IMG/VR virus record: IMGVR_UViG_3300021256_000061
Reading direction: 5' to 3' (one strand)
Source of the DNA: a virus
Lineage: Duplodnaviria; Heunggongvirae; Uroviricota; Caudoviricetes
Length of the DNA: 64,000 nt
Shown here one piece after another: positions 14,181 through 53,959 of this stretch (its first letter is position 1; each line of letters opens with the position of its first letter). The notes beneath the pieces were generated by a model. The model searched no databases. It saw nothing but the letters and a program-made list of their open reading frames with translations, and was not told the origin of the DNA. The position numbers and the translations under genes were made by a program.

Positions 14181-14220
14181 ATAATATATAATAAGAAATT
14201 AATTTCTTATTATATATTAT
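14181..14220. repeat. perfect 40-bp palindrome ataatatataataagaaatt/aatttcttattatatattat
   Basis: Read directly; the two 20-bp halves are exact reverse complements; lies in the AT-rich divergent region between the minus-strand and plus-strand gene blocks. Confidence 0.9.
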
Positions 14221-14370
14221 AAAAAAAATACGCCCTTTAATGTAAGAATTGTCACGCTTTGCAGTATAAGGTATTAGACAAACATCAATAAAAAGTTGAA
14301 TTAAAAGTGAAAGATAATAAATAACCATTGGTATATATAAGCAAAGAAACCAACTAAACAACCCAATACC

Positions 14371-14601: not shown

Positions 14602-14661
14602 AATGCACCCTAATGCCTTTTTTGAAAAAAGTTATAAAATTATCCTAACTAAAATTCAGTT

Positions 14662-14677
14662 TGGTATGGTCTTTGAT
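14662..14677 (+). promoter_or_regulatory. degenerate plus-orientation copy of the -24/-12-like motif (TGGTATGGTCTTTGAT)
   Basis: Only 4 nt from ATG 14681, so promoter function here is questionable. Confidence 0.25.
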
Positions 14678-14680
14678 TAT

Positions 14681-25789: not shown

Positions 25790-27037
25790 TTATAAAAACC
25801 TATGAGTTTCAATTTCTTGCTTCATCCTATCACTACTTTTTAGTGCCTTGTTTCCAAGTCTGTCATCCATAGTTGGATAGTCCGCAAGCGTAAATTCGGG
25901 AGTACGGCTCCCTATTATTCTTAAACCCTCTTCAAGTATATTCAACGCAGCATTGTAATCTCGTTCAATAATTTCTCCACAAACAGGACAAACCCATTGT
26001 CTGTCACTTAATTTAAGTTCCTTATTGATATAACCACAATTATGACATGTCTTACTTGAAGGATAGAATCTGTCAACATAAACTATATCCCTGCCATACC
26101 ACAATGCTTTATATTCAAGCATCCTTCTGAATTCTCCGAAGTTCATTTCAGATATGGATTCAGCAAGCTTATGATTCTTAACCATTCCCTTCACATTCAA
26201 ATCTTCCATCACTATGACTTGGTTATCATCAAGCAATGTGTTTGATACTTCGTGAAGATAGTTAAGTTTCTGGTTTCTTATCTTTTCATTCAACTTAGCA
26301 AGTTTGATTCTTGCTTTATTTCTATTGTTGCTTCCTTTCTGTTTTCTTGAAAGTTGTCTTTGTAATTTCTTTAGCCTATTCACTTCAGATTTCTTAAAGT
26401 GAAGATTACTGAAGCATTCACCTTCTGATGTTACAACAAAATCCTTAATGCCTAAATCAATTCCAACAGCACTATTTGTTGCTTTTAATTTCTTCCTGAA
26501 ATCACCATCAACAAGAATTGAAAGGTAATATTGTCCAGAACAGTTTCGTGATAGTGTGGCTGAACGGATTCCGTCTTTATTCTTCACAAGATAATTCACA
26601 TATTCATCGGAGCATTTAAACTTAATGTTGTGGATGTTGGCGAGTGATAATTTATGTGTTGAATAATCATTCCTTTTTGATATCGCTTCCAAAGGAAACC
26701 TGCATGATTGTTTATTGTCATGTTTAGATTTATACTTCGGAAATCCTTTATGCTCATTAAAGAAATGAGAATAAGCATCCAATAAATCACGAATAGATTG
26801 TTTCAATACTTTAGTATTCTGTTCCTGCAACCACGAATATTTCTCATCTTTTGTAAGTTCATTATGAAAGAAATGCCCAAGAGTTGTCAGGTTTTCGGAA
26901 GTTTCGTTTTCTTTATATGTGTTTATTTTCTTTTCAAGACATTGATTATAGACAAACCTATAACACCCAAGCAATTTATTAATTTGTATTGCTTGAGTCT
27001 TATTTGGATATAATCTTATTTTCAATGCCTTTAACAT
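25790..27037 (-). CDS. tnpB: TnpB (IS200/IS605/IS607 OrfB family RNA-guided nuclease), 415 aa
   Basis: N-terminal RLYPNKTQ...FVYNQ; RuvC-I GIDLG, RuvC-II VMEDLN, zinc finger CHNCG...CPVCG, Ruv[13 protein letters not shown]; all catalytic residues present. Confidence 0.85.
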
Positions 27038-35069: not shown

Positions 35070-36173
35070 TTAATTAAAGAAGGTTTTGAGTGCCTCTTTT
35101 TGCTTCTTATTAAGTTTATTGGGGTAAATATATTTGATTACCACAACCAGGTCTCCAGTGCTGATATTTCTACCAAACCTATCCATGATTGGCATGCCCT
35201 TTCCCTTGAAAGTAAATGTGGCTCCATCCTTTGTTAATTCGGGGACGGTAAGATTTACTTTGGAGCCGTCAATGCACGTTATTTCTTTTTTATAACCAAG
35301 TATTGCCTCAGTAAATTTAACTTCCTCCGTATATATTAAGTTTTCCGCTTGACGGGCAAATTTAGAGTGCGCGGTAATTCTGAATGTTACTAAAAGGTCG
35401 CCGTTGGGACCACCGTTTTCCCCTGCGTTTCCCATTCCAGTATATGCTATTGTGGTCCCATTGTCTACGCCCATTGGTATCGTAATCTCGATTTCCTCGG
35501 GTACGAACTTTGTGCCTGTTCCGTTGCACTTGTGGCACGGGGTTGTGGGTGATTGTCCAGTTCCATGGCAATACGGACAAGAATGTGATATCACCGTCTG
35601 CATATTTCCCCTCGTTGTAACCTGAGAAATCATTCCAGTTCCTTTACAGTGGGGGCAGGTGTGCCTTTTACCATCTTCAGAACCACTCCCGTGACAATGG
35701 TCACAATCTTCAAGGCGGTTAATTTTAACTTTTTTCTTTGTTCCGTGGTAAGCTTCTTCGAGTGTAATTTCTATTGTGGTTCGAATATCGCTCCCCTGCG
35801 TCGGTGCATTTGGGGAAGGCTGTTGCCCGCCAAAACCGAACCCAAAGGGCCCAAATCCGCCAAAGTGACCAAAGCCCCCTCCGAAGGGGTTGAAGCCATT
35901 TCCAAAGGGATTAAATCCTTCAAATGAGGCCCCATTATCATATTGATTGCGTTTTTCTTCATCAGAAAGAATGCTGTATGCTTCGGAAATTTTCTTAAAT
36001 TTTTCTTCAGCGGTTTTTTTCTCCTCTTCAGTGCCGTTTACCCACTTGTCTGGGTGCCACTTGAGGCTAAGTTTGCGGAAGTTCTTTGAAAGTTTGTCGG
36101 TAAAGTCTTTGCCGTGTAACTTTTTGTCTTCTTCGCTAAGTTCTAAAATGTCATAATAATCATTCTCTGCCAT
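35070..36173 (-). CDS. dnaJ: DnaJ (Hsp40) co-chaperone, full type-I architecture
   Basis: J-domain with HPD (LSLKWHPDK), Gly/Phe-rich linker, four CxxCxGxG zinc-finger repeats, C-terminal domains. Confidence 0.85.
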   Translation of the reverse strand: MAENDYYDILELSEEDKKLHGKDFTDKLSKNFRKLSLKWHPDKWVNGTEEEKKTAEEKFKKISEAYSILSDEEKRNQYDNGASFEGFNPFGNGFNPFGGGFGHFGGFGPFGFGFGGQQPSPNAPTQGSDIRTTIEITLEEAYHGTKKKVKINRLEDCDHCHGSGSEDGKRHTCPHCKGTGMISQVTTRGNMQTVISHSCPYCHGTGQSPTTPCHKCNGTGTKFVPEEIEITIPMGVDNGTTIAYTGMGNAGENGGPNGDLLVTFRITAHSKFARQAENLIYTEEVKFTEAILGYKKEITCIDGSKVNLTVPELTKDGATFTFKGKGMPIMDRFGRNISTGDLVVVIKYIYPNKLNKKQKEALKTFFN

Positions 36174-36261: not shown

Positions 36262-37908
36262 ATGCCTGCAAATATAAAAATAAATAATGTAAAATCAATA
36301 CGTTTCAGATGTAATTACGATAAGTATTATGATTTTATGTTATATAAAGGAGAATGCTATGGAGATGGTTCCTTTGGGGATTGTCTTGCGGCGGATATTA
36401 CTCCTTACTCATTGGCTGATGATGGCAAACTCTATTCAAAAGCCGTATGGGGCGGTGCCGTTAGTGAAGGTGCCGAATTAAAGGATATCGGCTTTACTGG
36501 CATTGATAACGGCTTCATTACATATAATAAAGATGAGATTTCAAACCAGGAGTTTCTTGATATATTCACAGGTAGCACATATACCATTGCTGCGGGGGAC
36601 AGAAGACTGTTTTTGAGCCCCGTATCAGGAAACACGCAGACTTTTGTATACCCTACGGAAATACTGGAAGATGAGAAAGGTAAATATTTTTCATTAAAAG
36701 GCGGCTTTTATCAAGGATTTTATAAGCTCTTTGGGTTTAATTATCAAACATTACCATCATACATAGATAATAGTTGGAATCTTTCATTTACTTTAAGAAG
36801 GAGAAGCGATTATGAGACCGAGGCAGATACATTAAACAATCTCCACCCCGAAAATTCTGGTATATTTTTCTACATGGGTGCCAGGGCTGAAAATAAATTC
36901 TGGCATCTTTACAATACTGAAGGAATGGATGAGTTTTACATTGATAGTGCGGTTGATGATGGCTATTTTGCTGATTGGGATATGGAAAATTATGTTACTG
37001 ACGATGATTATGTGGAAGAAGAGGACGGAGAGTATTCGTTAGACCCAGAATATTGGCAGAAAGAAACCGATTTGTCACAAGTCTCGGCTTCAACGAGCGG
37101 CGGTTATGATTTGGACAAAAAGGGATACTACGAAATTGAAACGGACAATAAATTCATATTTTTCAACAGAACTTGTACTGGGTTTACAGTAAATAATTGG
37201 GATGAAGACACATCTGTTGTTTTAAGCGGAAGAACAGATTGGACGGATGAGAATTACTTTATTACTTTTAACAGAACTTGTACGGGAAGAACGGTAAACG
37301 ATGCTGATGAATATAATGAGCAGCATACGCGCACGTATGATATTTTTAAAGACATCAAGAACAATAGTTTCGCCTTGAAAATCAATGATGATGGAAGTAT
37401 CGGTTATAGAATGGGAAGTCTTGACTGTGAAGAAGAGCATGGATACGGGATTAAGGAGGAATTTTCTAAACCAGGTATAATACCCCAGGACGAATGGGTT
37501 AACATTAATGTTGAGATGCGTATTCAAAACCCAGTAGAAACTCAATGTATTAGTGATTCTGGTACCACAGTAACAACAGTTTCGACACATATAGGTGAAA
37601 GAAAAATGAAAATCTACATCTATGTAAATGGATACCTCGTCTTTGTTAGTAAAGAACTCCCTGAATTTAACTTCAAAGAGCTAAATGAAGTATATCAAAA
37701 ACAGGAGGGCGTTCCTTTCAATATTTCAATTGGAGGCGGAACACAGGGCCTTTTGGAAGAAGTGTTTGTTGATTACTATAAAACCACACAATATTGTTTA
37801 CCAATTGAAAAGAATTTTGCTGGAACATTTATTGGGGATATTCGTTCATTTAAATTTTATCCATGTTTTTTGGACTATCCTACAATAAAGAAGATGACAA
37901 ATCTTTGA
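36262..37908 (+). CDS. large hypothetical protein (548 aa), probable virion/structural
   Basis: ORF; internal duplicated FNRTCTG(F/R)TVN segment; GACTATTTATT upstream. Confidence 0.5.
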   Translation: MPANIKINNVKSIRFRCNYDKYYDFMLYKGECYGDGSFGDCLAADITPYSLADDGKLYSKAVWGGAVSEGAELKDIGFTGIDNGFITYNKDEISNQEFLDIFTGSTYTIAAGDRRLFLSPVSGNTQTFVYPTEILEDEKGKYFSLKGGFYQGFYKLFGFNYQTLPSYIDNSWNLSFTLRRRSDYETEADTLNNLHPENSGIFFYMGARAENKFWHLYNTEGMDEFYIDSAVDDGYFADWDMENYVTDDDYVEEEDGEYSLDPEYWQKETDLSQVSASTSGGYDLDKKGYYEIETDNKFIFFNRTCTGFTVNNWDEDTSVVLSGRTDWTDENYFITFNRTCTGRTVNDADEYNEQHTRTYDIFKDIKNNSFALKINDDGSIGYRMGSLDCEEEHGYGIKEEFSKPGIIPQDEWVNINVEMRIQNPVETQCISDSGTTVTTVSTHIGERKMKIYIYVNGYLVFVSKELPEFNFKELNEVYQKQEGVPFNISIGGGTQGLLEEVFVDYYKTTQYCLPIEKNFAGTFIGDIRSFKFYPCFLDYPTIKKMTNL

Positions 37909-37957
37909 CTGATAAACAACTATTTATAGAAAAATAAGGTTTAACTAAATAAACGAA

Positions 37958-39892
37958 ATGGCAGATATTAATGGCGTAAGATATTATAAGCGTAGGGCTA
38001 TATATGAGAATGACGTAACCCTTAACAAGTCTCTTCTTGGCGAAGAGATTGATGGAAATTTCTTTTTCCTAAGAGGTAACGACATTGATAAAATTGGTGT
38101 TGATGAAGAAAATCATCTTCTAACTCTGGAGCGTGTCAATGGACAAAAATTAACAGTTGACATTAGCCAGGAAATAGGCGATACTGTACTCTCTTTTGAC
38201 CCTGAAACAGGCGTTTTACATGTGGTTACCCCCGCTAGCGAGTATGACGTGACGGGATTTTTGTCTTTAGAGACGGGTCTTCATATTGCAAGTGATGAAA
38301 CGCTTAAAGGTGAAGGTACCATTGAAAAGCCCCTCGGAATTTCTGAGAACGAAAGGACTGGCATGCTTGCCGTCGCAGATGAATATATCGACATGACGGG
38401 GGAATATGTTTTGCCTGTTGATGTTGTTAAAGGTTACCGTTACGTAAGTAAAGAGCGTATAGACGATTTTGGGCTTCTTTACAATTACGCTGGTGTTGAG
38501 AAGATAGCCGAATATCTTGCTGAAATTTCAAGCGAGTGGCGTGTTCCTTCACGTGAAGATTGGGCTTCAATGCTTGATGCGGTCGAAGATGCTGATGCCT
38601 GCAGAACCAAATCGATGCACGACAGTGAAGAAAGTGGTGTATATCTTGGCGAGGTTGCAGGTGCAAGACTTAAGTCAACAAATCTCTGGTCCGCATCTAC
38701 GGCTCCAGGACTTGACGAATTCGGATTCAACGTTTTACCACTCGGCTATATCGATGAAAGTGGCTCTGAGCTTGACGATGTTGTATATAAAAGAGCATCA
38801 TTCTGGACTTCAACGGAAGAAAGCCTAAGGCAGGAAGTATATATTAAAGGTTTTGCTTATAACACACCTAAAGTATATCAGGGAACCTGGGACCAACGCG
38901 CAAAAGCATCTTTGAGGCTTGTTAAAGATAATGATGGTTCTAACTTCTTTACAAACGAAATTATTGCTGGTGAAACAGTTCCTTGTGTCCAAATGCCAAA
39001 TGGTACAATATGGACATCCAAAAACATTGGGTTTAGAGACGAGGCGTTCTCTGGTGTTACTTCTGAAAAATGGGAAGAAATTGAACATGAAACCAATATC
39101 GGTTTCTATATTAACACATTTGATGGGCGTCAATGGATAAAGAGGCGTATGACCGATGGTGAAACCATCGTTATTAAACTCAATGAAGATAAGGAATATT
39201 CAACATGGAGAGTGATTGGTGACGAGCTTCGTGGGCTTGACGGTGTTGTGGACCTTGATGCTGAAACAAAGGCAAGAATTAACGGTGATAATGCACTTGC
39301 TGAAAGGATTGAAACACTTAGCTCTGCGTTAACCGAAGCCCTCGAGAGAGTTGAGATTCTTTCGGAACGTGTTTCTGAACTTGAAGATAGAGATTTCTGG
39401 GCGATTTATGGCACCACAAGTGAAGCTGAAATTAGAGCAGCTAATACTGCAAATAAAAATGTTTGCTGTAAATATAACTCTTGCATCTATCGCTTGGCTT
39501 ATGCTGGTTCAAGCGTTGTGTTCTCTTGTACAACTAATTTAACCACGCCTGCAGGTGTTAACTTCCTGACCGTTCGCGGAACGCAATGGTTTGTTTTAAC
39601 CGTTCCTAATCTTATTACATCGCAAGTATTGGACAATAAGGTTGGTCCTATTGAAAATAAAGTTGTTGCCCTTAACGGTGCTACCGCAGATACATTCCTC
39701 AGGAATGTTATGGAGGTTATTGACGATGTTGTTCTCGGATATCCTCAAAACATTTCAGTTGTTAAGGTTGACAGTAATGACCATATTACTGAAAGTCTCG
39801 ATGATACTGTGGCGTTTAGGATTAAGTTTGCCCCTGACGTCATCTTCCTTGCGGATACAATATATGAGAACGATGACAATATTGAACCTTAA
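37958..39892 (+). CDS. large hypothetical protein (644 aa), probable virion/structural
   Basis: ORF with central coiled coil (AERIETLSSALTEALERVEILSERVSELE). Confidence 0.5.
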   Translation: MADINGVRYYKRRAIYENDVTLNKSLLGEEIDGNFFFLRGNDIDKIGVDEENHLLTLERVNGQKLTVDISQEIGDTVLSFDPETGVLHVVTPASEYDVTGFLSLETGLHIASDETLKGEGTIEKPLGISENERTGMLAVADEYIDMTGEYVLPVDVVKGYRYVSKERIDDFGLLYNYAGVEKIAEYLAEISSEWRVPSREDWASMLDAVEDADACRTKSMHDSEESGVYLGEVAGARLKSTNLWSASTAPGLDEFGFNVLPLGYIDESGSELDDVVYKRASFWTSTEESLRQEVYIKGFAYNTPKVYQGTWDQRAKASLRLVKDNDGSNFFTNEIIAGETVPCVQMPNGTIWTSKNIGFRDEAFSGVTSEKWEEIEHETNIGFYINTFDGRQWIKRRMTDGETIVIKLNEDKEYSTWRVIGDELRGLDGVVDLDAETKARINGDNALAERIETLSSALTEALERVEILSERVSELEDRDFWAIYGTTSEAEIRAANTANKNVCCKYNSCIYRLAYAGSSVVFSCTTNLTTPAGVNFLTVRGTQWFVLTVPNLITSQVLDNKVGPIENKVVALNGATADTFLRNVMEVIDDVVLGYPQNISVVKVDSNDHITESLDDTVAFRIKFAPDVIFLADTIYENDDNIEP

Positions 39893-41899: not shown

Positions 41900-44800
41900 A
41901 TGAAAGTCATACACAAAAGAAGTAATGGCAATTCTTTGCCTGCAGCAAGCGCAATTACATATGGTGAAATAGCTGTTAATTACAAAAGTGGCGGTGAGGC
42001 GCTTATAATTAAAAACGATAGTGATGAAATAGTAACCTTTGGGACCGATAAAAAAAATCCATTCGAACCAGGGACAGGAGTTAATAGTGCGCAATTAAAA
42101 GGAACTGGTGCAATAGCAAGTGGTGAAAATTCTGTGGCGGAGGGGGCAGATAACATAGAAGGGCAAACTACACCAGATGCTGGGGATGAGTTATTATATG
42201 CTAAGGCAGAGGGTTATGCCTCTCATGCTGAAGGCGCAGCCCATGCTATCGGTAAATACAGTCACGCAGAGGGGGGTGGCGACAGTATCCAAGAAGGATA
42301 TAAAACAGTCCCAACCGCTGAGGGCGCGTATTCTCATGCCGAAGGCACACATACTTATGCGAAAGGCTCTCGCTCACACGCTGAGGGCCTCTTAACTCAG
42401 GCTCTCGGTGACGGCTCACATGTCGAGGGCTATAAAACAATAGGCAGGAATGCTAATGACCACGCAGAAGGCCTTGAAACCGTGGCGGAGGGATGGGGCT
42501 CCCATGCTGAGGGGGAATTATCCGTGGCGTCTGCCGCAAGGTCTCATGCAGAAGGGTATAACACAAAGACGGGAGGGAGTGATACGGCTAATACGAGAAC
42601 GGCTGGTACCGTCGCTGGCGCATATTCCCACGCAGAAGGCAATGCATCAATTGCTAATGGTCAGGCAGCACATGCTGAAGGAACAAATACTTTGGCATCA
42701 AACCATTCAAGTCATGCAGAAGGCAATAAAACAATAGCATCTGCTCCTCAATCTCATGCTGAAGGCATAAATACACAGGCTACTGCAAATAGAGCTCATG
42801 CTGAGGGCAACGGCAGTATTGCGAGTGGAGAAAATTCTCACGCAGAGGGAGTTAATACTACAGCAATAGGGAACGGTGCTCATGCCGAAGGTAATAATAC
42901 TATTGCCCAAGGGACGCAGTCTCATGCGGAAGGATTATCTACTGTGGCATCTGGTGAGCGTAGTCATGCTGAAGGTAACGGGACAACGGCGACTGGTAGT
43001 TTCTCCCATGCGGAAAACCGTACCACAATAGCAGGGGGACACTCTTCCCACGCAGAGGGATACCAAACCGTAGCAGGTACCGCGGAGAAACAGGCATCTA
43101 ACGGTGATACAACTGACGGCTATTTTACTCATGCTGAAGGAAATGGAACGAGAGCATATGGCAATAGCTCCCATGCTGAAGGAAAAGATACACAAGCAAA
43201 TGGATTGGCATCTCATGCCGAAGGCTTAAGAACTGTTGCAAGTGGTAGTATTAGTCATGCAGAGGGTGCTGATACCATTGCTTCAGGTGAAAGGGCACAC
43301 GCTGAAGGGAACGGTACAAGGGCATCTGGCGGTTATTCACATGCCGAAGGTGATGCCACTTTTGCTTCTGGTTCTTCTTCACATGCTGAGGGCTATAAAA
43401 CAAAGGCAAGTGGCGATAGTTCTCACGCCGAGGGCGCCGCAACAACTGCATCTGATTCTTGCTCACATGCAGAAGGTGGAAGTACTACTGCATCTGGTCC
43501 TTACTCACACGCAGAAGGTTTCAATACTACTGCATCTGGTGCAAGGTCACATGCAGAGGGAAACTTTACTACTGCATCTACGGCGGCCTCACATGCAGAA
43601 GGTGGAAGTACTACTGCATCTGGTCCTTACTCACACGCAGAAGGTTTCAATACTACTGCATCTGGTGCAAGGTCACATGCAGAGGGAACTTCAACACATA
43701 AATATAATGGAGAAGAAGTACACACTTATGGGTCTTATTCTCTCGCCAGTGGTGAATCATCACATGTTGAAGGCAGTAATACTAAGGCAACTGGTAATTG
43801 TTCGCATGCAGAGGGAAATGAAACGTGGGCATCTGGTCAACATTCACATGCAGAAGGCTTGTCATCTGTCGCATCTGGCAACTATTCACATGCAGAAGGC
43901 TCGTTATCTGTCGCATCTGGAGACTATTCACATGCAGAAGGCGATTATACAGTTACTTACAATCATGCTGAGCATGCAGGTGGCCGATGTAATATATCGC
44001 ATAAGGCTTCAGATGATTTTGGCAATCCTGGCAATACACTTGTATCTTATGGTATAGGCTATGTTGAAGGAGAGGCTAATGTACACAAGAATGCCTTCGA
44101 GATAATGCAAAATGGCGATGCCTACTTATATGGCGTCGGAGGGTATGACGGAACCAATGCAACGGCAAGCACATCAAACACATTACAACAATGCTTGAGT
44201 AAAATAGGCAATTTAACTGAAATTACATGGTCTGCACTCAAATCACTTCGTGACAGCAGCGGATTAACCCCTGGCATGCAATATAGGATTACTGATTATA
44301 ACACTACGACAACTCAGGCCAATACCCAATCTGCGGGGCATCAGTTTGATATCATCGTTGTTGCAGATGATAACCATACTCTTAATGAAAATGCAAGGGC
44401 TATAAAGCATGCAGGAGATACTTATTTCACTGGTGCTACGTTGGAAGCCTGGGAATTAAAATATGATATTGATAACGATACTACTAAATATAGCTGGGCT
44501 GATGCAACTAATGGTAAAGGTGTTATCTATTGGATGAAGGATGAATTTAATAATGAATGCCCTTATGACTTTAAGAATATTCAGTTCAAACGTAAAATAT
44601 CTCTTTCAAATGGATACCCTGAATTAGACTTAACTGGTGGCACAGATACCTGGGTCTTTACATTTGCCGCAACATCATATCATATAACAAATGACATATG
44701 GTCGGATTTGAAAGATGGTTCTTTGGAACCTCCATATGGTCATGAAAGTGATAAAAATACTAGTACTTATCATGATAATGTCATGGGAAGATATATAAAA

Positions 44801-45778
44801 GTTTATGATGATGTTGACGAAGATAACACTAAATGTGGCATACAGTATTTAAATGATAATGTCTTTTTAGGTTATTGGGAAGAAGTCGGTAGTGATGACC
44901 CAGAAAATGTCCCATATTATCATGCATATTGCTCATATGGATGTACTTTTGGAGATAACTGCAACTCCAACACATTTGGGAACAGCTGCAACTACAACAC
45001 ATTTGGGAACAGCTGCAACTACAACACATTTGGGAACTACTGCGAATTCAATACATTTGGGAACAGCTGCAACTCCAACACATTTGGGAACAGCTGCAAC
45101 TACAACACATTTGGGGACTACTGCAACTACAACACATTTGGGAACTACTGCGAATCCAACACATTTGGGAACTACTGCAACTACAACACATTTGGGAACA
45201 GCTGCAAATTCAATACATTTGGGAACAGCTGCTACTCCAACACATTTGGGAACAGCTGCGAATTCAATACATTTGGGAACAACTGCAACTCCAACACATT
45301 TGGGAACAGCTGCAACTCCAACACATTTGGGAACAGCTGCAACTACAACACATTTGGGGACTACTGCAAGTCCAACACATTTGGGAACAACTGCAACTCC
45401 AACACATTTGGGAACAGCTGCAACTCCAACACATTTGGGAACAAGTGCAACTCCAACACATTTGGGAACTACTGCGAATCCAATACCTTCGGTGAATCTA
45501 TTCAATATTTTATCATAGGTAATGCTATGAATGCCACGACATTGGAACAAACAAAAAGTTATGTGCGATATCTCATTGTTGAAAATGGTGTTCAAAATGT
45601 AAATGCCTATTGTACAGGTACTACAAGTTCTTCAAGTTATTGTCAAAACATTAAGATTGGCTTAGGGCTGAAAGGAACATCTTCAAGTAATAGGCTGCAA
45701 ATAGATATTACAACTCAGATTGGTGCATCTACGAGTGTCACTTATCAGCCAGCAAACAGTCAAATCATATCAGTGTAA
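41900..45778 (+). CDS. giant tail-fibre/spike-like protein 1 (1292 aa): about 40 Hep_Hag-like 14-aa SHAEG repeats, central globular domain, then about 20 copies of a 9-aa Cys repeat
   Basis: 14-residue periodicity S-H-A-E-G-x-x-T-x-A-x-G-x-x across residues about 90-690; conserved C-terminal block shared with fibre 2. Confidence 0.7.
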   Translation: MKVIHKRSNGNSLPAASAITYGEIAVNYKSGGEALIIKNDSDEIVTFGTDKKNPFEPGTGVNSAQLKGTGAIASGENSVAEGADNIEGQTTPDAGDELLYAKAEGYASHAEGAAHAIGKYSHAEGGGDSIQEGYKTVPTAEGAYSHAEGTHTYAKGSRSHAEGLLTQALGDGSHVEGYKTIGRNANDHAEGLETVAEGWGSHAEGELSVASAARSHAEGYNTKTGGSDTANTRTAGTVAGAYSHAEGNASIANGQAAHAEGTNTLASNHSSHAEGNKTIASAPQSHAEGINTQATANRAHAEGNGSIASGENSHAEGVNTTAIGNGAHAEGNNTIAQGTQSHAEGLSTVASGERSHAEGNGTTATGSFSHAENRTTIAGGHSSHAEGYQTVAGTAEKQASNGDTTDGYFTHAEGNGTRAYGNSSHAEGKDTQANGLASHAEGLRTVASGSISHAEGADTIASGERAHAEGNGTRASGGYSHAEGDATFASGSSSHAEGYKTKASGDSSHAEGAATTASDSCSHAEGGSTTASGPYSHAEGFNTTASGARSHAEGNFTTASTAASHAEGGSTTASGPYSHAEGFNTTASGARSHAEGTSTHKYNGEEVHTYGSYSLASGESSHVEGSNTKATGNCSHAEGNETWASGQHSHAEGLSSVASGNYSHAEGSLSVASGDYSHAEGDYTVTYNHAEHAGGRCNISHKASDDFGNPGNTLVSYGIGYVEGEANVHKNAFEIMQNGDAYLYGVGGYDGTNATASTSNTLQQCLSKIGNLTEITWSALKSLRDSSGLTPGMQYRITDYNTTTTQANTQSAGHQFDIIVVADDNHTLNENARAIKHAGDTYFTGATLEAWELKYDIDNDTTKYSWADATNGKGVIYWMKDEFNNECPYDFKNIQFKRKISLSNGYPELDLTGGTDTWVFTFAATSYHITNDIWSDLKDGSLEPPYGHESDKNTSTYHDNVMGRYIKVYDDVDEDNTKCGIQYLNDNVFLGYWEEVGSDDPENVPYYHAYCSYGCTFGDNCNSNTFGNSCNYNTFGNSCNYNTFGNYCEFNTFGNSCNSNTFGNSCNYNTFGDYCNYNTFGNYCESNTFGNYCNYNTFGNSCKFNTFGNSCYSNTFGNSCEFNTFGNNCNSNTFGNSCNSNTFGNSCNYNTFGDYCKSNTFGNNCNSNTFGNSCNSNTFGNKCNSNTFGNYCESNTFGESIQYFIIGNAMNATTLEQTKSYVRYLIVENGVQNVNAYCTGTTSSSSYCQNIKIGLGLKGTSSSNRLQIDITTQIGASTSVTYQPANSQIISV
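43463..43687 (+). repeat. 99-bp exact direct duplication (43463-43561 and 43588-43687) inside fibre 1
   Basis: Both copies encode SHAEGGSTTASGPYSHAEGFNTTASGARSHAEG. Confidence 0.8.
44940..45490 (+). repeat. 27-bp tandem repeat, about 20 near-perfect copies, in frame (9-aa unit NTFGN-x-C-x-x)
   Basis: caactacaacacatttgggaacagctg reiterated; every unit has one Cys. Confidence 0.9.
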
Positions 45779-45811
45779 TAATAATGCCTTCGTATAAAAA
45801 GAATAAAAGAT

Positions 45812-45991
45812 ATGAAAACAGAAAATAACAGACAATATTATTGTGATGAAGGAAAGGTTTTCCGCCGCAAGGTAGATGGCTTCATCATGGGCAACGGTCT
45901 TGATTTGGGAGACATCGACAGCATCGAGAATTACGAAGAAGTGGACAATCCCAATAATAATGATAATAAAGAAGAAAAAAGCGAGCAATAA
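45812..45991 (+). CDS. small acidic protein between the two fibre genes (59 aa)
   Basis: ATG 45812, TAA 45989-45991; MKTENNRQYYCDEGKVFRRKVDGFIMGNGLDLGDIDSIENYEEVDNPNNNDNKEEKSEQ; below ORF-track cut-off. Confidence 0.35.
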   Translation: MKTENNRQYYCDEGKVFRRKVDGFIMGNGLDLGDIDSIENYEEVDNPNNNDNKEEKSEQ

Positions 45992-45993
45992 AT

Positions 45994-48900
45994 ATGGATA
46001 TTAGACTAAAATCGGGTGAAAGACTTAATTTAGAGGGAAGCGCCATTATCAATGGTAATGTAACCGCATCCACAGTTGTTTTAAAAAATGGTACATCATC
46101 TCAATTCCTTAAGGCTGATGGAAGTGTGGATAGTAATAGTTATGCAACGACCTCCCAACTTTCAGGAAAACAAGATACTCTCGTTAGTGGAACAAACATT
46201 AAGACTGTTAACGATAGTTCAATCCTTGGTTCTGGAAATATAACCGTAGGTACAATCACTGGTATTAACATGAACGGTACCAGTAAGGGCACATCGGGGG
46301 TGGTAGACCTTGGAACTGTGATTACCTCACATCAGGATATATCGGGGAAAGAAAATATCGTCAATAAAACGACGAGTCTTTCCTCGGCTTCTACTGATAC
46401 TCAGTATCCAAGCGCAAAGGCGGTATATGATAGTACTGTTTTTGAAAAGGGCAGTGGAACCAATAGTGCACAACAGAAGAGAAGCGGCGCAATCGCTAGT
46501 GGAGCTAATAGCGTAGCAGCGGGGCAAAACACTAAAGCCATTGGAGATAATTCATTTGCAGAAGGAGGTGGTTCTACAGCTAATACTGTAAATGCTCATG
46601 CTGAGGGATATAACACTTTAGCTCAGGGAAACGCTTCTCACTCAGAAGGATTTTCGACTCAAGCAATAGGTAGTTATTCCCATAGTGAAGGTAATACTTC
46701 TATTGCTTCTGGTGATTATGCATCTCATGCCGAAGGATGGCACACAACAGCTTCTGGCGCACAATCCCACTCTGAGGGATATAGCACTTTAGCTCAGGGA
46801 AGCTCTTCTCACTCAGAAGGATTTTCGACTCAAGCAATGGGTAGTTGTTCTCACAGTGAAGGTAATACTTCTATAGCTTCGGGTGACTACGCTCATGCAG
46901 AAGGATGGCACACAACAGCTTCTGGCGCACAATCCCACTCTGAGGGAAATCAAACAAGCGCATCTGGTAACACTTCACATGCTGAAGGTTCTAATACTAT
47001 CGCATCTGGTAGTTACTCACATTCTGAGGGACAAAATACTCAAGCAAAACAAAATAATGCTCATGCCGAAGGTTCTGGTACTATAGCAGATGGTCATTCT
47101 GCTCATGCCGAAGGTTACAACACACAAGCAATAGCTAATTTTGCCCATTCCGAAGGAAGTAATACAGTTGCAAGTTGGATGTGTGCTCATGCCGAAGGTG
47201 ATGGTACAACCGCAAGTAAAGATGCTGCCCACGCGGAAGGAAAAGGGACCGTTGCTTCGGCGCCAAGAGCTCATGCAGAGGGTAGACGAACGACGGCATC
47301 GGGTTATGCTGCGCATAGTGAAGGTAGTAAGTCCCTGGCTTCTGCAATGGGTGCTCATGCCGAGGGTGGTTTTACGGATGAAAGCGGAGAAGCGGAAATT
47401 GAATATGTGGGTGGTACAGCTGCTAGTGTGGCTTCTCATGCCGAAGGTGTCGAAACTTTTGCTGGGCAGAAGGGCTATAAATACACGACCACAGGTTCTG
47501 TTACTACCCAATTAACGTTGACATCAGTAGATGGACTTGCGGTTGATGATGTCGTGTCAATTGTAAATGACTATAAATACCCCGATTGTTCTACAATCAC
47601 AACAATCAATGGCAATACTGTTACATTTGATTCCTTACCATTCACTGAAATAATATCAGGTTTAACTGACTTTGATGATTATGTTGTGTATGTGTCAGCA
47701 AAACCAACAGTGGGTGATGTTGAATTGGGTATAGCAGCACATGCCGAAGGAGTAGGAAGTAAGTCGCAGAATTGGGCAGCTCATGCAGAGGGTAGGGATA
47801 CAAAAGCTTACGGAGAATACTCACACACTGAGGGTAGAGAAACAACGGCACAATATGCTTCTCATGCTGAAGGCAGAAAAACAGAAGCAATTGGTACCTA
47901 TAGTCATGCTGAAGGTTTCTCAACTCATTCAACAAACGAGGCAACCCACACCGAAGGTAGAGATACTACAGCCAGTGCAAAATTCGCCCATTCTGAAGGG
48001 TATATGAACACCGCATCAGGAGAAGCTTCACATGCTGAAGGCGGTAATGGTTCTGCAATTGGCAATTCATCCCATAAAGAAGGTAATAAGAGTGTTGCTT
48101 ATTCTAAAAATTCACATGCAGAAGGGGAAGAAACTATTGCTGGTGACGCGAATAATCCAAACACAAGCGGAAAAGGCCAAGCGGCTCATGCCGAAGGGTA
48201 TCAAACAAAAGCAATAGGTAATTATACGCACGCCGAGGGCGCCATAACAACAGCATCTGGTAACAACTCTCATGCGGAGGGTGTTAGAACTACAGCATCT
48301 GGTTCTGGGGCACACGCAGAAGGTACTTCTACGAATGTTTATGATGGTTCTACCCCGATAGACCCCGCGGCTACTTATACGTTGGCATCAGGTGGCTACA
48401 GTCACGCGGAGGGTGGAAATACTAAAGCAATTGCTTCTGGCGCACATGCTGAAGGAAATTTTTCATTAGCTTCTGGACTATATTCTCATGCAGAGAATCA
48501 ACAAACACAGGCGACAAATCAGGCGGCTCATGCCGAAGGGGTAAGAACAACTGCAAGTGGCGCGGCAAGTCATGCCGAAGGCGCTGATACAATTGCGTCA
48601 GGTGACAGAGCACATGCCGAGGGAGACCACACTACTGCCTCTGGGCTTCATTCTCATGCAGAAGGGTACAACACCGAAACAGGTGGGAATGCTACCGCTA
48701 ATACAAAAACAGCAGGCACCTCATCTACAAACGGTGCTTATTCCCATGCAGAAGGTAATGCGACAATAGCAAACGGAGTTAATAGCCACGCGGAAGGTAT
48801 GCTTACATTTGCGAAAGGGACTTCTTCACATGCTGAGGGCTATAAAACAAAGGCAAGTGGCGATAGTTCTCACGCCGAGGGCGCCGCAACAACTGCATCT

Positions 48901-49542
48901 GGTTCTGGGGCACACGCAGAAGGTGGAAGTACTAATGCATCTGGTTCTTACTCACACGCAGAAGGTGGAAGTACTACTGCATATGGTTCTTACTCACACG
49001 CAGAAGGTTACAGTACTACTGTATCTAGTTATTACTCACACGCAGAAGGCTATAAGAATACAGCACAAAATACAGCAGAACATGTAGGGGGAAAGTACAG
49101 CGTATCCCACAAAGCATCAGATACTTACGGCAGTAGCGGAAACACCACGTTTGCGCACGGTATAGGCTCATCTACTTCAGATAGAAAGAATGCATTTGAA
49201 ATAATGGAAAGTGGCGATGCCTACTTATATGGTGTCGGAGGATATGATGGGACTAATGCAACGGCAAGTACATCTCAAAGACTTCAAGACATATTAAGCA
49301 TTTTAACTCCTGTTACCATAGAAGGTACAATAAGCCTTGATTCATCAACAGGTCATTATAGATTCACTTCAAACGATGGGGTGAATCCTGTAGACTTTGA
49401 ACCATTCTTTGTTAGTGGTGGTACAATTACTCTAACTATTGATTCTGCCACCCATTGCAGGGTAATATCATATAACTCTGACTTGCGAAAAATGATTGCA
49501 ATAAACCCTGATGATGGTAAACTCATATATTGGGTTGGATAA
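45994..49542 (+). CDS. giant tail-fibre/spike-like protein 2 (1182 aa), paralog of fibre 1 with SH(A/S)EG repeats
   Basis: Same 14-aa repeat; shared C-terminal block NAFEIM(Q/E)(N/S)GDAYLYGVGGYDGTNATASTS; about 80-bp patch identical to fibre 1 (48823-48903 vs 43374-43454). Confidence 0.7.
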   Translation: MDIRLKSGERLNLEGSAIINGNVTASTVVLKNGTSSQFLKADGSVDSNSYATTSQLSGKQDTLVSGTNIKTVNDSSILGSGNITVGTITGINMNGTSKGTSGVVDLGTVITSHQDISGKENIVNKTTSLSSASTDTQYPSAKAVYDSTVFEKGSGTNSAQQKRSGAIASGANSVAAGQNTKAIGDNSFAEGGGSTANTVNAHAEGYNTLAQGNASHSEGFSTQAIGSYSHSEGNTSIASGDYASHAEGWHTTASGAQSHSEGYSTLAQGSSSHSEGFSTQAMGSCSHSEGNTSIASGDYAHAEGWHTTASGAQSHSEGNQTSASGNTSHAEGSNTIASGSYSHSEGQNTQAKQNNAHAEGSGTIADGHSAHAEGYNTQAIANFAHSEGSNTVASWMCAHAEGDGTTASKDAAHAEGKGTVASAPRAHAEGRRTTASGYAAHSEGSKSLASAMGAHAEGGFTDESGEAEIEYVGGTAASVASHAEGVETFAGQKGYKYTTTGSVTTQLTLTSVDGLAVDDVVSIVNDYKYPDCSTITTINGNTVTFDSLPFTEIISGLTDFDDYVVYVSAKPTVGDVELGIAAHAEGVGSKSQNWAAHAEGRDTKAYGEYSHTEGRETTAQYASHAEGRKTEAIGTYSHAEGFSTHSTNEATHTEGRDTTASAKFAHSEGYMNTASGEASHAEGGNGSAIGNSSHKEGNKSVAYSKNSHAEGEETIAGDANNPNTSGKGQAAHAEGYQTKAIGNYTHAEGAITTASGNNSHAEGVRTTASGSGAHAEGTSTNVYDGSTPIDPAATYTLASGGYSHAEGGNTKAIASGAHAEGNFSLASGLYSHAENQQTQATNQAAHAEGVRTTASGAASHAEGADTIASGDRAHAEGDHTTASGLHSHAEGYNTETGGNATANTKTAGTSSTNGAYSHAEGNATIANGVNSHAEGMLTFAKGTSSHAEGYKTKASGDSSHAEGAATTASGSGAHAEGGSTNASGSYSHAEGGSTTAYGSYSHAEGYSTTVSSYYSHAEGYKNTAQNTAEHVGGKYSVSHKASDTYGSSGNTTFAHGIGSSTSDRKNAFEIMESGDAYLYGVGGYDGTNATASTSQRLQDILSILTPVTIEGTISLDSSTGHYRFTSNDGVNPVDFEPFFVSGGTITLTIDSATHCRVISYNSDLRKMIAINPDDGKLIYWVG

Positions 49543-49576: not shown

Positions 49577-50527
49577 ATGCCCAAAATTCAAATAACAGAA
49601 AACGATATTTATAAAATGGTACGCGGGGTTCTCAAAGAGCTTCACTACGGGCAACAATTACAAATCCCGTTTGAGGGAGAGATTGATACCCCAAATTATA
49701 AGCAGTTTATTGAATATCTTGAAACAATTGGACATTATGGAAAGTTGCATAATCCTGCAACTTCAGTTAATGATTGGTTTAAAGACCCTGAGTTGTTGCA
49801 ATTCGCATTTGAGACCAGATTCATTCAGAGCTATGGTGACCCATCAATAGATTCATTTTATTTAACAAGAACTTTGGAAGATTTCTTATCTTGGTCAAAT
49901 AGACCCGCAAAAGATTTGATTAATCCAGGTTGGCTAAATAGTGATGGGGAATTAGATTTTGATGAATGGAGTGATGGCTTGGGTTTGTATGAAGATACTT
50001 GGAAACAAGAAGTTTTAACCGCTGAAGCCCAAAGAATGTGGCCTGCATTCGCCAGAATCCACGGTAAGGGGTGTTTAAGTAGCTTTATTGAGTATAATCT
50101 TCACATGAATGATTTGGGTCAAATTCAAGTTGAAAGGGAGATTACTATTCCAAAAGCAAACAAGTACTCGAAGTTTCCTCAGTATCAGCGTAAAGATGGA
50201 GAACAGCCGAAAGATTTGGATTATTATGAATTCTTGACAAACAATATGAATTACGGTCGCGGGATTGGCGTATGTTGGGCATACGCAAAGGGGGCTGCCG
50301 AATCTTATAATGCCGACCCATATGGTCCACAGGGGGGATGTGACACAATAACAATGTATGGTTGGGTTAATCCAGAAAGTGTTGATATAAAGACATCGCT
50401 TGAACTGGAAATAATGGATGAATGTGAATTACGTTTAAAAGCCAGCGCCCTAGTTCAAATAGACCGCATTATTATGAGGGAAAACGGCCAAAACCTTTTA
50501 AAGAGTTCAATAGTAGTCCCAGCTTAA
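49577..50527 (+). CDS. motif-family protein (316 aa)
   Basis: N-terminal IQITENDIYKMVRGVLKEL; AACTATATTAT upstream. Confidence 0.5.
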   Translation: MPKIQITENDIYKMVRGVLKELHYGQQLQIPFEGEIDTPNYKQFIEYLETIGHYGKLHNPATSVNDWFKDPELLQFAFETRFIQSYGDPSIDSFYLTRTLEDFLSWSNRPAKDLINPGWLNSDGELDFDEWSDGLGLYEDTWKQEVLTAEAQRMWPAFARIHGKGCLSSFIEYNLHMNDLGQIQVEREITIPKANKYSKFPQYQRKDGEQPKDLDYYEFLTNNMNYGRGIGVCWAYAKGAAESYNADPYGPQGGCDTITMYGWVNPESVDIKTSLELEIMDECELRLKASALVQIDRIIMRENGQNLLKSSIVVPA

Positions 50528-50538
50528 AACAAAAAAAA

Positions 50539-50560
50539 ACACGCTTAATTGCGTGTTTTA
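50539..50560. terminator. hairpin terminator between convergent genes
   Basis: A9 - acacgc ttaatt gcgtgt - tttaaagtttt. Confidence 0.55.
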
Positions 50561-51106: not shown

Positions 51107-51504
51107 ACTTTCCTTAATTCTACACTAAGACAAATCGTATTATTAAGTGGTTCCCAGTTTTGTATTTGATTACTCTCCACGGGCTTTGCTCCTGGTGCTA
51201 CAGCGACGGTAACGTGGGGTAAGGCGTTGTTTGTGGGATATCCTGTAACTTTAATGGCCATTGCCCTATCGGAAAGCCCAAGGTCGGTTGCGGTGAGAAC
51301 TGTGCGTTTCCCCAATTCCTTTTCACAGTTATCTCCCCATATTTTTGCATTCTCACTATGGTCATTATAAATAATGGTCATGTGGTCGCAATAGGGCTTC
51401 CAGCCTTCTGGTATTTTACCCGAAAGAGCTTCCATTAAGGTAGCTTTTGCTTCGTCACTAAGGAATAAGCCATAATAAATCCAGTCTTCCATGTTAGTTT
51501 GCAA
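51091..51504 (-). CDS. 2H-phosphoesterase-like protein (LigT/CPDase-like), 137 aa
   Basis: Two H-x-T-x motifs (HMTI and HVTV) 56 residues apart. Confidence 0.45.
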   Translation of the reverse strand: MQTNMEDWIYYGLFLSDEAKATLMEALSGKIPEGWKPYCDHMTIIYNDHSENAKIWGDNCEKELGKRTVLTATDLGLSDRAMAIKVTGYPTNNALPHVTVAVAPGAKPVESNQIQNWEPLNNTICLSVELRKVCKHK

Positions 51505-52750
51505 TTAAAATATTATAACACTCTTCTTTGGTAATTAGAGGGTTGATATAAGCAACGCCCATTACCATGTCTAAATAATGTTTTACTTCCTCAGAGGGGC
51601 CGATGTTTTTAATTTTCATAACATCTTCACCATTTATAGGGAGTGTATATTGAAACATATCTATCCCCCCCTTAATCATTTTATCGGTAGTCTCTATTAC
51701 GGGGTCCACAAGTGTGTGCCCTATCTCGGCAACCATATAAGCACAAGCATCCTGGAACTTTTCATATGTTCCGCAATAGTGGTGGAATCTCCTTATACTT
51801 ACAGGCTTTGCGCTAAGAGGAAACGGGGATACGGCGCCACGTAAGAACTTAACATAATCAACTACGTGGTTGGAATATTTAAGATACTTGAGGTCTTCGT
51901 CATAATCTCTTGAGTAACGTAGAATAACCGCCAGGTTTATAATAGGATTTTTACTGTTAACTTTTTCGATGTCCTTTGCAGCGGTATCCACAAGGTTGTT
52001 ATTACCAAACCCCTCAAAGAAATTAGGGAAAACAAAATGCAATGCACCCACGGAATCGATAAGTTTTAACCCATACCCAGGATTATCACTTGAGAGAATG
52101 CCATCTAGTTCTTTCTGTATTCGCTCATGGCTAATGATTTCAAGGCGTTCAACATTACGCTTCATACCCTCCAGGGTTTCCTTTTCAATAGTTGAGTTGA
52201 AACGAGCACTGAAGCGGATGCAACGCAAAATCCTCAATGGGTCCTCTTTATAGATTATATCAGGGTTTCCACAAGTTCTAAGCACATTGTTTTTTAAATC
52301 GTTAAAACTGTTGCCATTGAAATCGTGTGTGGTTTCCTCGGATATATTGTAGTATATCGCATTGTACGTGAAATCCCTTCTGGTGCAATCATCATTAATT
52401 GTACCAAATGCGGTTTCTGGGTCGCGAGTATTGGCGTCCCTATAACATTCCTTCCTTGTTTGTACTGCCTCCAATTCGAATCCTGGAATGCTCTTAAGGT
52501 GGAACATGGCGGTTCCGAAATTTTCATAAACGACAGGCTCATTTGTAATATGGTCATTAGAAAACAGCCATTTTGCAAATTCAATACCCCCGTTGGGGAG
52601 GTCGATTACAAGGTCAATATCCTTGATTTCTCTACCCATGAGACGGTCGCGTTCACATCCACCCACGGAATAAACGTGGCCTTCCCATTTGGTGCCTTTG
52701 ATTATGCTCTTGAGGGTGTCGATTATTTTTTTGTAATCTGAAAGTAGCAT
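51494..52750 (-). CDS. CCA-adding enzyme / poly(A) polymerase-family tRNA nucleotidyltransferase (418 aa)
   Basis: Class-II NTase head motif VYSVGGCERDRLMGREIKDIDLVIDL (GGxVRD...DiD). Confidence 0.75.
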   Translation of the reverse strand: MLLSDYKKIIDTLKSIIKGTKWEGHVYSVGGCERDRLMGREIKDIDLVIDLPNGGIEFAKWLFSNDHITNEPVVYENFGTAMFHLKSIPGFELEAVQTRKECYRDANTRDPETAFGTINDDCTRRDFTYNAIYYNISEETTHDFNGNSFNDLKNNVLRTCGNPDIIYKEDPLRILRCIRFSARFNSTIEKETLEGMKRNVERLEIISHERIQKELDGILSSDNPGYGLKLIDSVGALHFVFPNFFEGFGNNNLVDTAAKDIEKVNSKNPIINLAVILRYSRDYDEDLKYLKYSNHVVDYVKFLRGAVSPFPLSAKPVSIRRFHHYCGTYEKFQDACAYMVAEIGHTLVDPVIETTDKMIKGGIDMFQYTLPINGEDVMKIKNIGPSEEVKHYLDMVMGVAYINPLITKEECYNILIAN

Positions 52751-52756
52751 GACTCT

Positions 52757-53959
52757 TTAATTATAAATGTAAAACATGTCATTATATTCTTCGCTACTAG
52801 GCCATTCAAAGCCCGAAATCATATTCTCAAAAACTGATTTTGCAATTTGCCCACGTCGCCTAGAGATATTTTCTTCGAGACCGTCGGTTGCTTCAACATA
52901 TATGTAGTGAATTCTCGCATTGAAGTTATTTAGGTTTTCGATAAGTCGCACCCTATGTTCCTTTCTGAGATTAATATTATTAATTATAATATCTTTCCCC
53001 ATTTCCGCGGCTGATTTAAGCCTGTCGTTAAACACCTTGGTGACCTTATCTTCCTGATATTTATTGCAAACGACTTTCTCACCAGCTTTACAGAAACCAA
53101 GTTCGGCTCTGAGGTCGTCTCTACAAAGAACGACAGCCCTCTCGCTGGGCTTGGCTATTGGTTTGTTGTGGGCGTCGGTAATGATTTCATCTGTAGCGCC
53201 TTTGAGAAGGGTATTGTATATAAAAGTGTCTTTACCAGCCCCTGGTAACCCGAGCATGACATAAACATCAAACACGTCCCTATTATCATTAGTCCTTTTC
53301 CAGGCATATTTACCATCTATAGGTAGGACCGAGGGTTGGGAAAGACAATTCATGTGAGAAGCAATATTCCAGATTTCCTTTATTTTAGCGTAATCCTCGT
53401 TCTTGCTGTTGACGTCTGACTGTTCGCTTCCGTCAAGGTCACATTCTTTGAGAATGCAAACATATTTGATGTTTACGTTTTTTGATAGCCTTGCTATTTT
53501 TTCTAGCTGTTCCTTGCCTTCGAAAACCTTCAGGGGTTCCATGTGCCAGCGCACAAGAGAACAAATCTGTTCGCGAATATCGGCTCCTTCATCCCAAAGG
53601 AGCCTGCGGGTGATTTTCTCGCCTTCAATTTCGTGGCCATATGCATGCCAGTTTCCCTTCTTGAAAGTGGTGGTTACTCCCTTGCCGATATCGTGGAAAA
53701 GAGCCGCTGCCATGAGGATTTTAACTTCGAGAGGATGCTTCTTATATGTATAACGGTATTCCTTGAGACGATTTTCCATTGCCTCACAGACTTTCTTTGT
53801 ATGTCGAAAAGCATCGCCCTCCTTGTGCCATATGGGATTTTGTTCGCACTTTTTAAGAACTGCGAATTCATCTATTTTTTCTATTTTCTTCCAATCATAA
53901 AGGAGTTTCCCTTTATCTTCATAGAAGAGTTTGTCAAGAAGTTTTGTCATATTACACAA
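52757..53959 (-). CDS. bifunctional HD phosphohydrolase + P-loop 5'-polynucleotide kinase (Pnk-like) end-healing enzyme (400 aa)
   Basis: HD motifs (RHT, LFHDIGKG, HAYGHE, RWHMEP) in the N-terminal half; Walker A MLGLPGAGKDT followed by VVLCRDDLR resembling the T4 Pnk kinase active site. Confidence 0.6.
   Translation of the reverse strand: MCNMTKLLDKLFYEDKGKLLYDWKKIEKIDEFAVLKKCEQNPIWHKEGDAFRHTKKVCEAMENRLKEYRYTYKKHPLEVKILMAAALFHDIGKGVTTTFKKGNWHAYGHEIEGEKITRRLLWDEGADIREQICSLVRWHMEPLKVFEGKEQLEKIARLSKNVNIKYVCILKECDLDGSEQSDVNSKNEDYAKIKEIWNIASHMNCLSQPSVLPIDGKYAWKRTNDNRDVFDVYVMLGLPGAGKDTFIYNTLLKGATDEIITDAHNKPIAKPSERAVVLCRDDLRAELGFCKAGEKVVCNKYQEDKVTKVFNDRLKSAAEMGKDIIINNINLRKEHRVRLIENLNNFNARIHYIYVEATDGLEENISRRRGQIAKSVFENMISGFEWPSSEEYNDMFYIYN

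Follow-up and report, generated by a model that had tools for sequence, protein, structure and literature searches.

Two tandem giant genes built from 14-residue SHAEG repeats in a Caudoviricetes genome: probable tail fibres with a predicted beta-roll shaft and traces of DNA exchange

The analysed window, a 64,000-nucleotide (nt) stretch of IMG/VR virus record IMGVR_UViG_3300021256_000061 (Caudoviricetes), carries on its plus strand two giant open reading frames (ORFs) in tandem, designated here P1 (41900–45778, 1292 amino acids, aa) and P2 (45994–49542, 1182 aa), which are built largely from a 14-residue repeat and probably encode paralogous phage tail fibres. An earlier model-generated reading of the letters and their ORFs (hereafter the sequence-only reading) had described two giant ORFs of 1292 and 1182 aa, each with about 40 copies of such a unit; both ORFs are present in the ORF list of the window, and the motif H-[ASVT]-E-[GN] has 38 occurrences in P1 and 48 in P2, with a spacing of almost always 14 residues. 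The unit follows the consensus S-H-A-E-G-x-x-T-x-A-S-G-x-x. When the fibre locus was compared with itself, as that reading had proposed, direct-repeat analysis revealed families spaced by 42 nt along both genes. With Lys also allowed at the second position, 87 of 89 occurrences in a six-frame translation of the window fell inside P1 and P2. Guanine-plus-cytosine (GC) content reached 0.48 at 42001–44000 compared with approximately 0.40 nearby, which we read as a product of the H-A-E-G codons and no sign of foreign origin. We regard alternative-frame ORFs within the arrays (43236–44057, 44892–45518, 44933–45595 on the minus strand, and others) as by-products of the repetitive sequence.

Borders between modules were drawn by mapping P1 and P2 onto 172 homologues (Table 1). 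The first 70 residues of P1, presumed to be its attachment end, gave no match in Pfam, PDB and PHROG searches, and the N-terminus of this protein is conserved among homologues. Residues 1–163 of P2 had no match in a PDB sequence search. A 96-aa insert between the two P2 arrays recurs at 73–79% identity close to the N-terminus of six homologues (P0003, P0071, P0124, P0128, P0006 and P0122). Foldseek matches of approximately 65–90 aligned columns to ATP-synthase chains, to the N-terminal domain of riboflavin synthase and to a phage tail-tube chain, all of which we take to be small beta-barrels, may belong to this insert of the P2 model. Searches of Pfam, PHROG, NCBIfam and PDB sequences gave no usable match for the insert, the P1 middle domain, the P2 C-terminus or either N-terminus.

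Both proteins close their arrays with a shared block, 83% identical in nucleotide sequence over 44087–44188 and 49186–49287. The block had been taken for a common C-terminus, which holds insofar as it closes both arrays; it is not the C-terminus of P1, where 517 further residues follow and form a conserved cassette. It was found in 55 of the 120 homologues listed and was present twice in at least 5 of 29 homologues checked, and since it is doubled in some proteins it appears to be a regular array terminator. The P1 copy was modelled as beta-strand pairs with a predicted local distance difference test (pLDDT) score of 54–83 by 10-residue blocks. Beyond the block, the 77 C-terminal residues of P2 had no counterpart among the 172 homologues and no Pfam or PHROG match, and the cassette of P1, from block to end, was whole in approximately 30 of the 172.

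Within this cassette lies a second array of 27-nt, 9-aa repeats (DNA register 44836–45591), in which 21 F-G-[NDE] motifs follow one another at an exact spacing of nine residues as part of N-T-F-G-N-x-C-x-x units. The cassette, this array and a 59-aa ORF between the two fibre genes had all been overlooked by the sequence-only reading. Structure modelling predicts the Cys-containing array to be a beta-helix, and in a real P1 trimer it may form a chain-swapped triple beta-helix. Foldseek comparison of the P1 C-terminal model with the PDB returned nothing below an expectation value (E) of 0.07; the Ca-dependent antifreeze beta-helix of Marinomonas primoryensis (3p4g) and tailspike beta-helices resemble the array at 5–12% identity, a generic solenoid likeness. 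CroV Crov588 (6nyr, phmmer E 1.5e-6) was rejected as a relative of the array, as the alignment was gapped and of low confidence and the repeats are unrelated. A further reason is that the 9-residue period seen here differs from that of the FNIP repeat, which is approximately 22 residues. The number of nine-residue units varies among homologues from approximately 4 to approximately 30. Model confidence was low for the small module that ends P1.

Table 1. Coordinates of features in and after the fibre locus (window positions) and the evidence for each
Feature	Position	Strand	Evidence
P1, probable fibre protein	41900–45778	+	Pfam YadA_head E 2e-7; PHROG 25468 E 8e-113
P1 N-terminal module, aa 1–70	41900–42109	+	Homologue N-termini P0004, P0005, P0010, P0064 at 51–57% identity
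P1 SHAEG layer array, aa ~108–689, 38 motifs	42221–43966	+	42-nt repeats; motif count
Exchange tract, P1 copy (81 bp exact, 43374–43454)	43374–43519	+	
P1 internal three-layer duplication, 101 bp exact, offset 126 bp	43462–43688	+	43462–43562 = 43588–43688
P1 closing block (..KNAFEIMQNGDAYLYGVGGYDG..), aa 690–775	43967–44224	+	Shared with P2
P1 conserved middle domain (QYRITDY ... CPYDFKNIQF), aa 776–1013	44225–44938	+	Invariant alignment columns
P1 9-residue N-T-F-G-N-x-C-x-x array, aa 1014–1200	44939–45499	+	21 F-G-[NDE] motifs
P1 C-terminal module (end YQPANSQIISV), aa 1201–1292	45500–45775	+	P0005 84% identity, P0004 73%
59-aa ORF between fibre genes	45812–45991	+	ORF; same place in L005, L006
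P2, probable fibre protein	45994–49542	+	PHROG 25468 E 9e-113; AlphaFold2 model; Foldseek to adhesin heads
P2 N-terminal region, aa 1–163	45994–46482	+	pLDDT <30; short matches to interior of other fibres
P2 layer array 1	46483–47445	+	42-nt repeats, motif, model
P2 internal duplication, 165 nt, 81%, offset 171	46557–46892	+	
P2 96-aa insert, aa 485–580, between arrays	47446–47733	+	All-beta in model
P2 layer array 2	47734–49080	+	42-nt repeats, motif, model
Exchange tract, P2 copy	48821–48966	+	
P2 closing block, aa 1030–1105	49081–49308	+	Shared with P1
P2 C-terminal 77 aa	49309–49539	+	Unique; pLDDT <50
316-aa ORF, last of run	49577–50527	+	No Pfam, PHROG, NCBIfam match
Two-way terminator-like hairpin after gene run	50536–50559	.	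Consensus match only

The 14-residue unit had been likened to the left-handed beta-roll repeat of YadA heads, and the Pfam score of P1, phmmer, the P2 model and Foldseek all agree with this likeness. P1 scored 31.5 bits against Pfam YadA_head (PF05658), over the 25-bit gathering cut-off, and phmmer against PDB sequences ranked BpaC (7o23) best (E 6e-12 and 1e-10), followed by matches to YadA, BoaA and CbpF heads; a 217-aa piece of the P1 array matched 7o23 at E 4e-15. AlphaFold2 modelled both arrays of full-length P2 (31-sequence alignment) at pLDDT 85–97 with a strict EEEEE--EE----- pattern every 14 residues, so that structure prediction, named in the sequence-only reading as a check, returned a left-handed beta-roll for these arrays as a monomer. 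When this model was compared with the PDB by Foldseek, all four matches at E ≤ 0.001 were left-handed beta-roll heads of trimeric adhesins (7o23, E 2.5e-9; 9gh5, E 5.5e-5; 9gh4; and 3s6l, template-modelling score 0.72 on target), and no fold other than a beta-roll was found at that threshold. Sequence matches and model together support the prediction that the arrays fold as a YadA-type left-handed parallel beta-roll. The C-terminal head of BpaC from Burkholderia pseudomallei (7o23) is likewise a long array of 14-residue layers of this fold, and it grows by three-layer (42-residue) units, which the P1 duplication at an offset of 126 bp mirrors. BpaC is, however, a membrane-anchored autotransporter with Thr at layer position 5 and Ser/Thr/Asn at position 7, whereas the phage layers bear an invariant His and Glu, have neither anchor nor coiled-coil stalk, and are joined to phage-fibre end modules.

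A likeness to adhesin heads raises the question of whether P1 and P2 are themselves bacterial-type trimeric autotransporter adhesins, carried on a mobile element and shown on the bacterial surface. This explanation would be in line with weak matches to EmaA, BimA, Ata, YadA and BpaC in NCBIfam and the PDB, and with one homologue named 'autotransporter adhesin' by its source; these matches, however, are restricted to the head repeats, and the genomic context is that of a phage. Pfam and NCBIfam scans detected no YadA_anchor or other membrane-anchor family, the models are almost helix-free with no coiled-coil stalk, and on direct reading the N-termini MKVIHKRSNGNSLPAASAITYGE and MDIRLKSGERLNLEGS lack any hydrophobic segment resembling a signal peptide. 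Since anchor, stalk and signal peptide are all missing, membership of the trimeric autotransporter class (type Vc) was rejected, and we consider this explanation very improbable.

Homologues of P1 and P2 are numerous (at least 7,900 each, as 90% clusters), and a search of P1 residues 230–690 against 1.84 billion cluster representatives gave 23,532 matches at E ≤ 0.001, including 4,829 at E ≤ 1e-30. These homologues bear Peptidase_S74, Peptidase_G2, Phage_tail_C, Phage_fiber_rpt, Phage_fiber_2 and Mtd_N domains as well as collagen repeats. Two cultured phages, Verrucomicrobia phage P8625 and Flavobacterium phage immuto, likewise have SHAEG-type repeats in genes that are annotated as tail fibres or tail spikes and lie within fibre-gene clusters. 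The products concerned (gp22 and gp169; 634 and 1053 aa by annotated coding sequence) share SHAEG-type layers with P1 and P2 at 49–53% identity over the aligned repeats, and differ from them in being shorter and encoded by single genes, with other end modules and a function assigned by annotation only. A further homologue, gp53 of Clostridium phage phiCT453A, is encoded directly downstream of the baseplate J and XkdU genes and shares the P1 middle domain (28% identity over 467 aa) and the N-T-F-G-N-x-C repeats (40–44%); it differs in having no SHAEG shaft, an N-terminal DUF3751 (by the note in its record) and a Gram-positive host. From the hallmark domains of the homologues, the repeats in fibre genes of cultured phages and the baseplate-adjacent position of phiCT453A gp53, we infer with a probability of roughly 75% that P1 and P2 are paralogous tail fibres or receptor-binding proteins, which would place them on the virion in a receptor-binding role and upholds the fibre assignment of the sequence-only reading.

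Several observations weigh against this picture of beta-roll tail fibres. P2 scored only 17.7 bits against YadA_head, under the cut-off, the phmmer matches to adhesin heads are heavily biased in composition, and the structure models are monomers that cannot be trusted at either end of P2 or at the end of P1. The tail-fibre labels in the GenBank records are computational, and neither N-terminus contains a known baseplate-attachment domain according to Pfam, PDB and PHROG searches. In addition, the two genes are surrounded by replication and RNA-repair genes, and a PHROG scan of approximately 30 of the larger window ORFs, about half of which remained unmatched, detected no capsid, portal, tail or baseplate family. 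Distance from any recognised tail gene of the window, N-termini that match no known baseplate adaptor, and the general use of YadA-type heads as adhesion modules in bacteria would also suit phage fibres of another kind, such as head fibres, whiskers, decoration proteins or mucus/biofilm adhesins. Such a non-tail role is nevertheless rather unlikely, given that homologues terminate in Phage_tail_C, Peptidase_S74 and Peptidase_G2 and that the P1 cassette has a homologue in a fibre encoded directly after baseplate genes.

PHROG 25468, the family to which P1 and P2 belong, is labelled 'unknown function', cluster members are named only 'hypothetical protein', and we found neither a solved structure nor a description of the SHAEG repeat family in the open-access literature. 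A YadA-like domain at the C-terminus of a tail fibre has been reported in a pelagiphage, where it lies in a hypervariable host-recognition region (Mizuno et al. 2014, PMC3909814). That domain is short and belongs to a T7-type fibre, whereas in P1 and P2 the layers make up a shaft of approximately 40.

Recent recombination between the paralogues had been proposed from identical patches of DNA, and the present data strongly support it. The exact patch shared by P1 and P2 spans 81 bp (43374–43454 = 48821–48901); it had been noted with correct P1 coordinates, and with its second copy shifted by 2, at 48823–48903. The patch sits inside a 146-bp tract in which 139 of 146 positions (95%) are identical, against a background of 54%. 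For comparison, the 2485 pairs formed by 71 canonical units had a mean identity of 22.7/42 (standard deviation 3.5), and only 12 pairs reached 38/42 or more. As the layer motif is strongly constrained, identical stretches might in principle arise by selection for the same peptide. However, the two copies of the patch use the same codon at all 26 in-frame positions (chance given the same peptide approximately 1e-12), and 42 of 43 amino-acid-identical codon pairs in the tract are also codon-identical, compared with 40.8% in the background. Because synonymous sites are identical too, the shared tract reflects exchange of DNA, and peptide selection as its cause has a practically negligible probability. 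The two copies lie 14 layers (P1) and 6 layers (P2) upstream of the closing block, so that the exchange took place between non-equivalent positions.

The only serious alternative to real exchange is an error of short-read assembly across the repeats. By its appearance the sequence comes from a metagenome assembly, and chimeric joins arise easily in repeat arrays. A near-identity search with the DNA of 41900–49542 against a collection of 50,697 phage records gave no match, and the best protein matches are just 47–53% identical. Against an artefact, both ORFs stay open over 3.5–3.9 kb, diverged but alignable layers flank the in-frame tracts, with a gradual decay of identity on one side, and similar duplication inside P2 shows a lower identity of 81%, as expected of older real events; we therefore regard misassembly as unlikely. 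The duplication inside P1, previously described as 99 bp at 43463/43588, is real, extends over 101 bp and starts at 43462. Exact internal repeats of 74, 67 and 49 bp were also seen in the 27-nt array (44939–45499), so this array, too, is being duplicated or homogenised. Recombination and a tandem arrangement are in themselves ordinary for phage receptor-binding genes.

In heads of the YadA type, the residues that point to the trimer core are those at layer positions 5 and 7, as a rule beta-branched hydrophobics; BpaC, for which alone polar residues at position 7 have been reported, is polar at both core positions (Kiessling et al. 2022, PMC9543794). YadA (1p9h, Yersinia), BoaA (3s6l) and CbpF (9gh4), which have the same 14-residue period with Ser/Ala/Gly at the same spacing, are NSVAIG-type heads with beta-branched hydrophobics at positions 5 and 7 (PMC9543794), where P1 and P2 would have His and Glu if the proposed register holds. 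With SHAEG at positions 4–8 the hydrophobic rule is thus broken by His and Glu, and in the alternative register positions 5 and 7 are variable and include Lys and Glu. Across 5221 layers the other half-layer proved very variable (position 9: T 23%, I 17%, K 11%; position 11: S 37%, with K, E and Y also seen). In 222 in-register layers located just before an array, the position of His was taken by F/V/I/L/Y/M in 60%, and array-capping layers carry the motifs SVAEG, SFAEG, SFAFG, SSAFG and AVAIG in register with SHAEG.

The sequence-only reading had placed HAEG where VAIG stands in other heads, a register to which the capping layers SVAEG, SFAEG, SFAFG and AVAIG lend support; phmmer, however, pairs SHAEG with the outer half-layer of YadA and BoaA, against a core-facing register. 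Given the variability of the other half-layer and the hydrophobic residues at the His position in capping layers, the SHAEG half-layer probably faces the trimer core, as far as can be judged from sequence. A more tentative and on balance doubtful proposal is that SHAEG layers constitute a distinct subclass of left-handed beta-roll, with invariant His and Glu at core positions 5 and 7 forming a buried His-Glu network or a column of metal ions. The threefold axis would then be ringed by three His and three Glu in each of approximately 40 stacked layers. The long and short tail fibres of phage T4 contain His-x-His metal sites, and by analogy, speculatively, the stability or rigidity of the fibres could respond to pH or metal. 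If it exists, the subclass, with 4,829 clusters at E ≤ 1e-30, would amount to a major type of phage fibre shaft that is structurally uncharacterised, of interest to structural biologists as the hydrophilic core reported once, in BpaC, taken to its extreme.

As we picture the fibres, each chain would form a long left-handed parallel beta-roll shaft with one 14-residue unit per layer (approximately 38 layers in P1 and 48 in P2), roughly 18 nm and 23 nm long, respectively, at 4.8 Å per layer, and three rolls would pack around a threefold axis as a homotrimer. The conserved block would close the array and be followed by a distal module, consisting in P1 of the conserved domain, the 21-repeat Cys beta-helix and a small end domain, and in P2 of the 77 unique residues. 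The differing ends could give the phage two receptor specificities. Made up of DNA repeats in frame, the arrays recombine, and such events alter the length and surface of the fibres with the reading frame kept.

Tail fibres set which bacteria a phage infects, a matter that is little understood for the phages of gut Bacteroidales. The locus offers a dissected example of a very large, apparently uncharacterised fibre family, and the order of its modules (attachment end, beta-roll shaft, closing block, exchangeable distal cassette and small downstream gene) could guide the engineering of host range. In descriptive terms, the His/Glu layer type, the Cys-containing cassette with its predicted 9-residue beta-helix and the conserved small gene after P1-type fibres are new.

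The product of this small gene, the 59-aa ORF, has an acidic tail and the conserved pattern MKT..N..Y..D.GK...R..DG..MG.G..LG..D.IENY.E.D.P. Its homologues occur right after P1-type fibre genes in two other contigs (L005, 11120–11332; L006, 9447–9650), and searches of Pfam, PHROG, NCBIfam and PDB sequences gave no family match. It may act as a fibre assembly factor. In three related contigs, the gene after the fibre opens with the second half of the closing block (NGD.Y.KG.GGYDG; L001, 14495–15526; L005, 11325–12854; L007, 3958–4113). These genes could be separate distal cassettes, docking mimics or recombination substrates. Unlike them, P2 does not open with the block motif.

P1, the 59-aa ORF, P2 and a 316-aa ORF form a tight run on the plus strand, closed by the hairpin listed in Table 1. 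Other genes of the window encode a helicase, a sigma factor, SSB, DnaJ, RNA ligase, polynucleotide kinase and tRNA nucleotidyltransferase, and, judged by the helicase, the cultured phages nearest to this one are Bacteroides phages DAC16-23 and SJC03 (40%). In the search for related loci, single neighbouring proteins (316 aa and 251 aa) gave no match, and a two-sequence alignment led to one IMG/VR viral contig. Two syntenic relatives, L001 and the IMG/VR relative L004, keep DnaJ, a 548-aa protein, a Fib_succ_major protein, the 251-aa protein and SSB. Comparison across genomes, another check named beforehand, showed that their fibre content differs: L001 has one SHAEG fibre at the locus, followed by unrelated genes, and in L004 the SHAEG fibre is absent. 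This variation in two relatives is as expected of a host-range island and suggests that P1 and P2 may be host-range determinants. The variable island of L004 also encodes, beside the Fib_succ_major gene, a 995-aa polysaccharide-deacetylase protein (11923–14910, minus strand), as would fit an alternative receptor-binding protein directed at capsule.

The P1 cassette was found at 66 loci of species-representative genomes, mostly metagenome-assembled genomes (MAGs) of Bacteroidales from ruminant or other gut samples. With most cassette loci in gut Bacteroidales, the host of this large phage is probably a member of this order living in an animal gut, a signal that phage contigs binned into MAGs could make misleading.

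Upstream of the fibre genes, at 36262–39892 on the plus strand, lie the 548-aa protein (no match) and the Fib_succ_major protein (644 aa), both syntenic in L001 and L004; these two may likewise be surface or fibre proteins that belong to the island. The neighbouring DnaJ (35070–36173, minus strand), kept in both relatives, is a full-length type I protein with J domain, CXXCXGXG zinc centre and C-terminal domain. The window yielded no tRNA gene, and just downstream of the fibre locus an RNA-repair-type run at 51494–56161 (minus strand) comprises the tRNA nucleotidyltransferase, an HD/polynucleotide-kinase-like protein and the RNA ligase. A TnpB-type gene (HTH_OrfB_IS605, OrfB_IS605 and Cas12f1-like TNB) occupies 25790–27037 on the minus strand, with a GC content of 0.32 at 26–28 kb, and has a 39% identical copy in L004 at 3474–4628.

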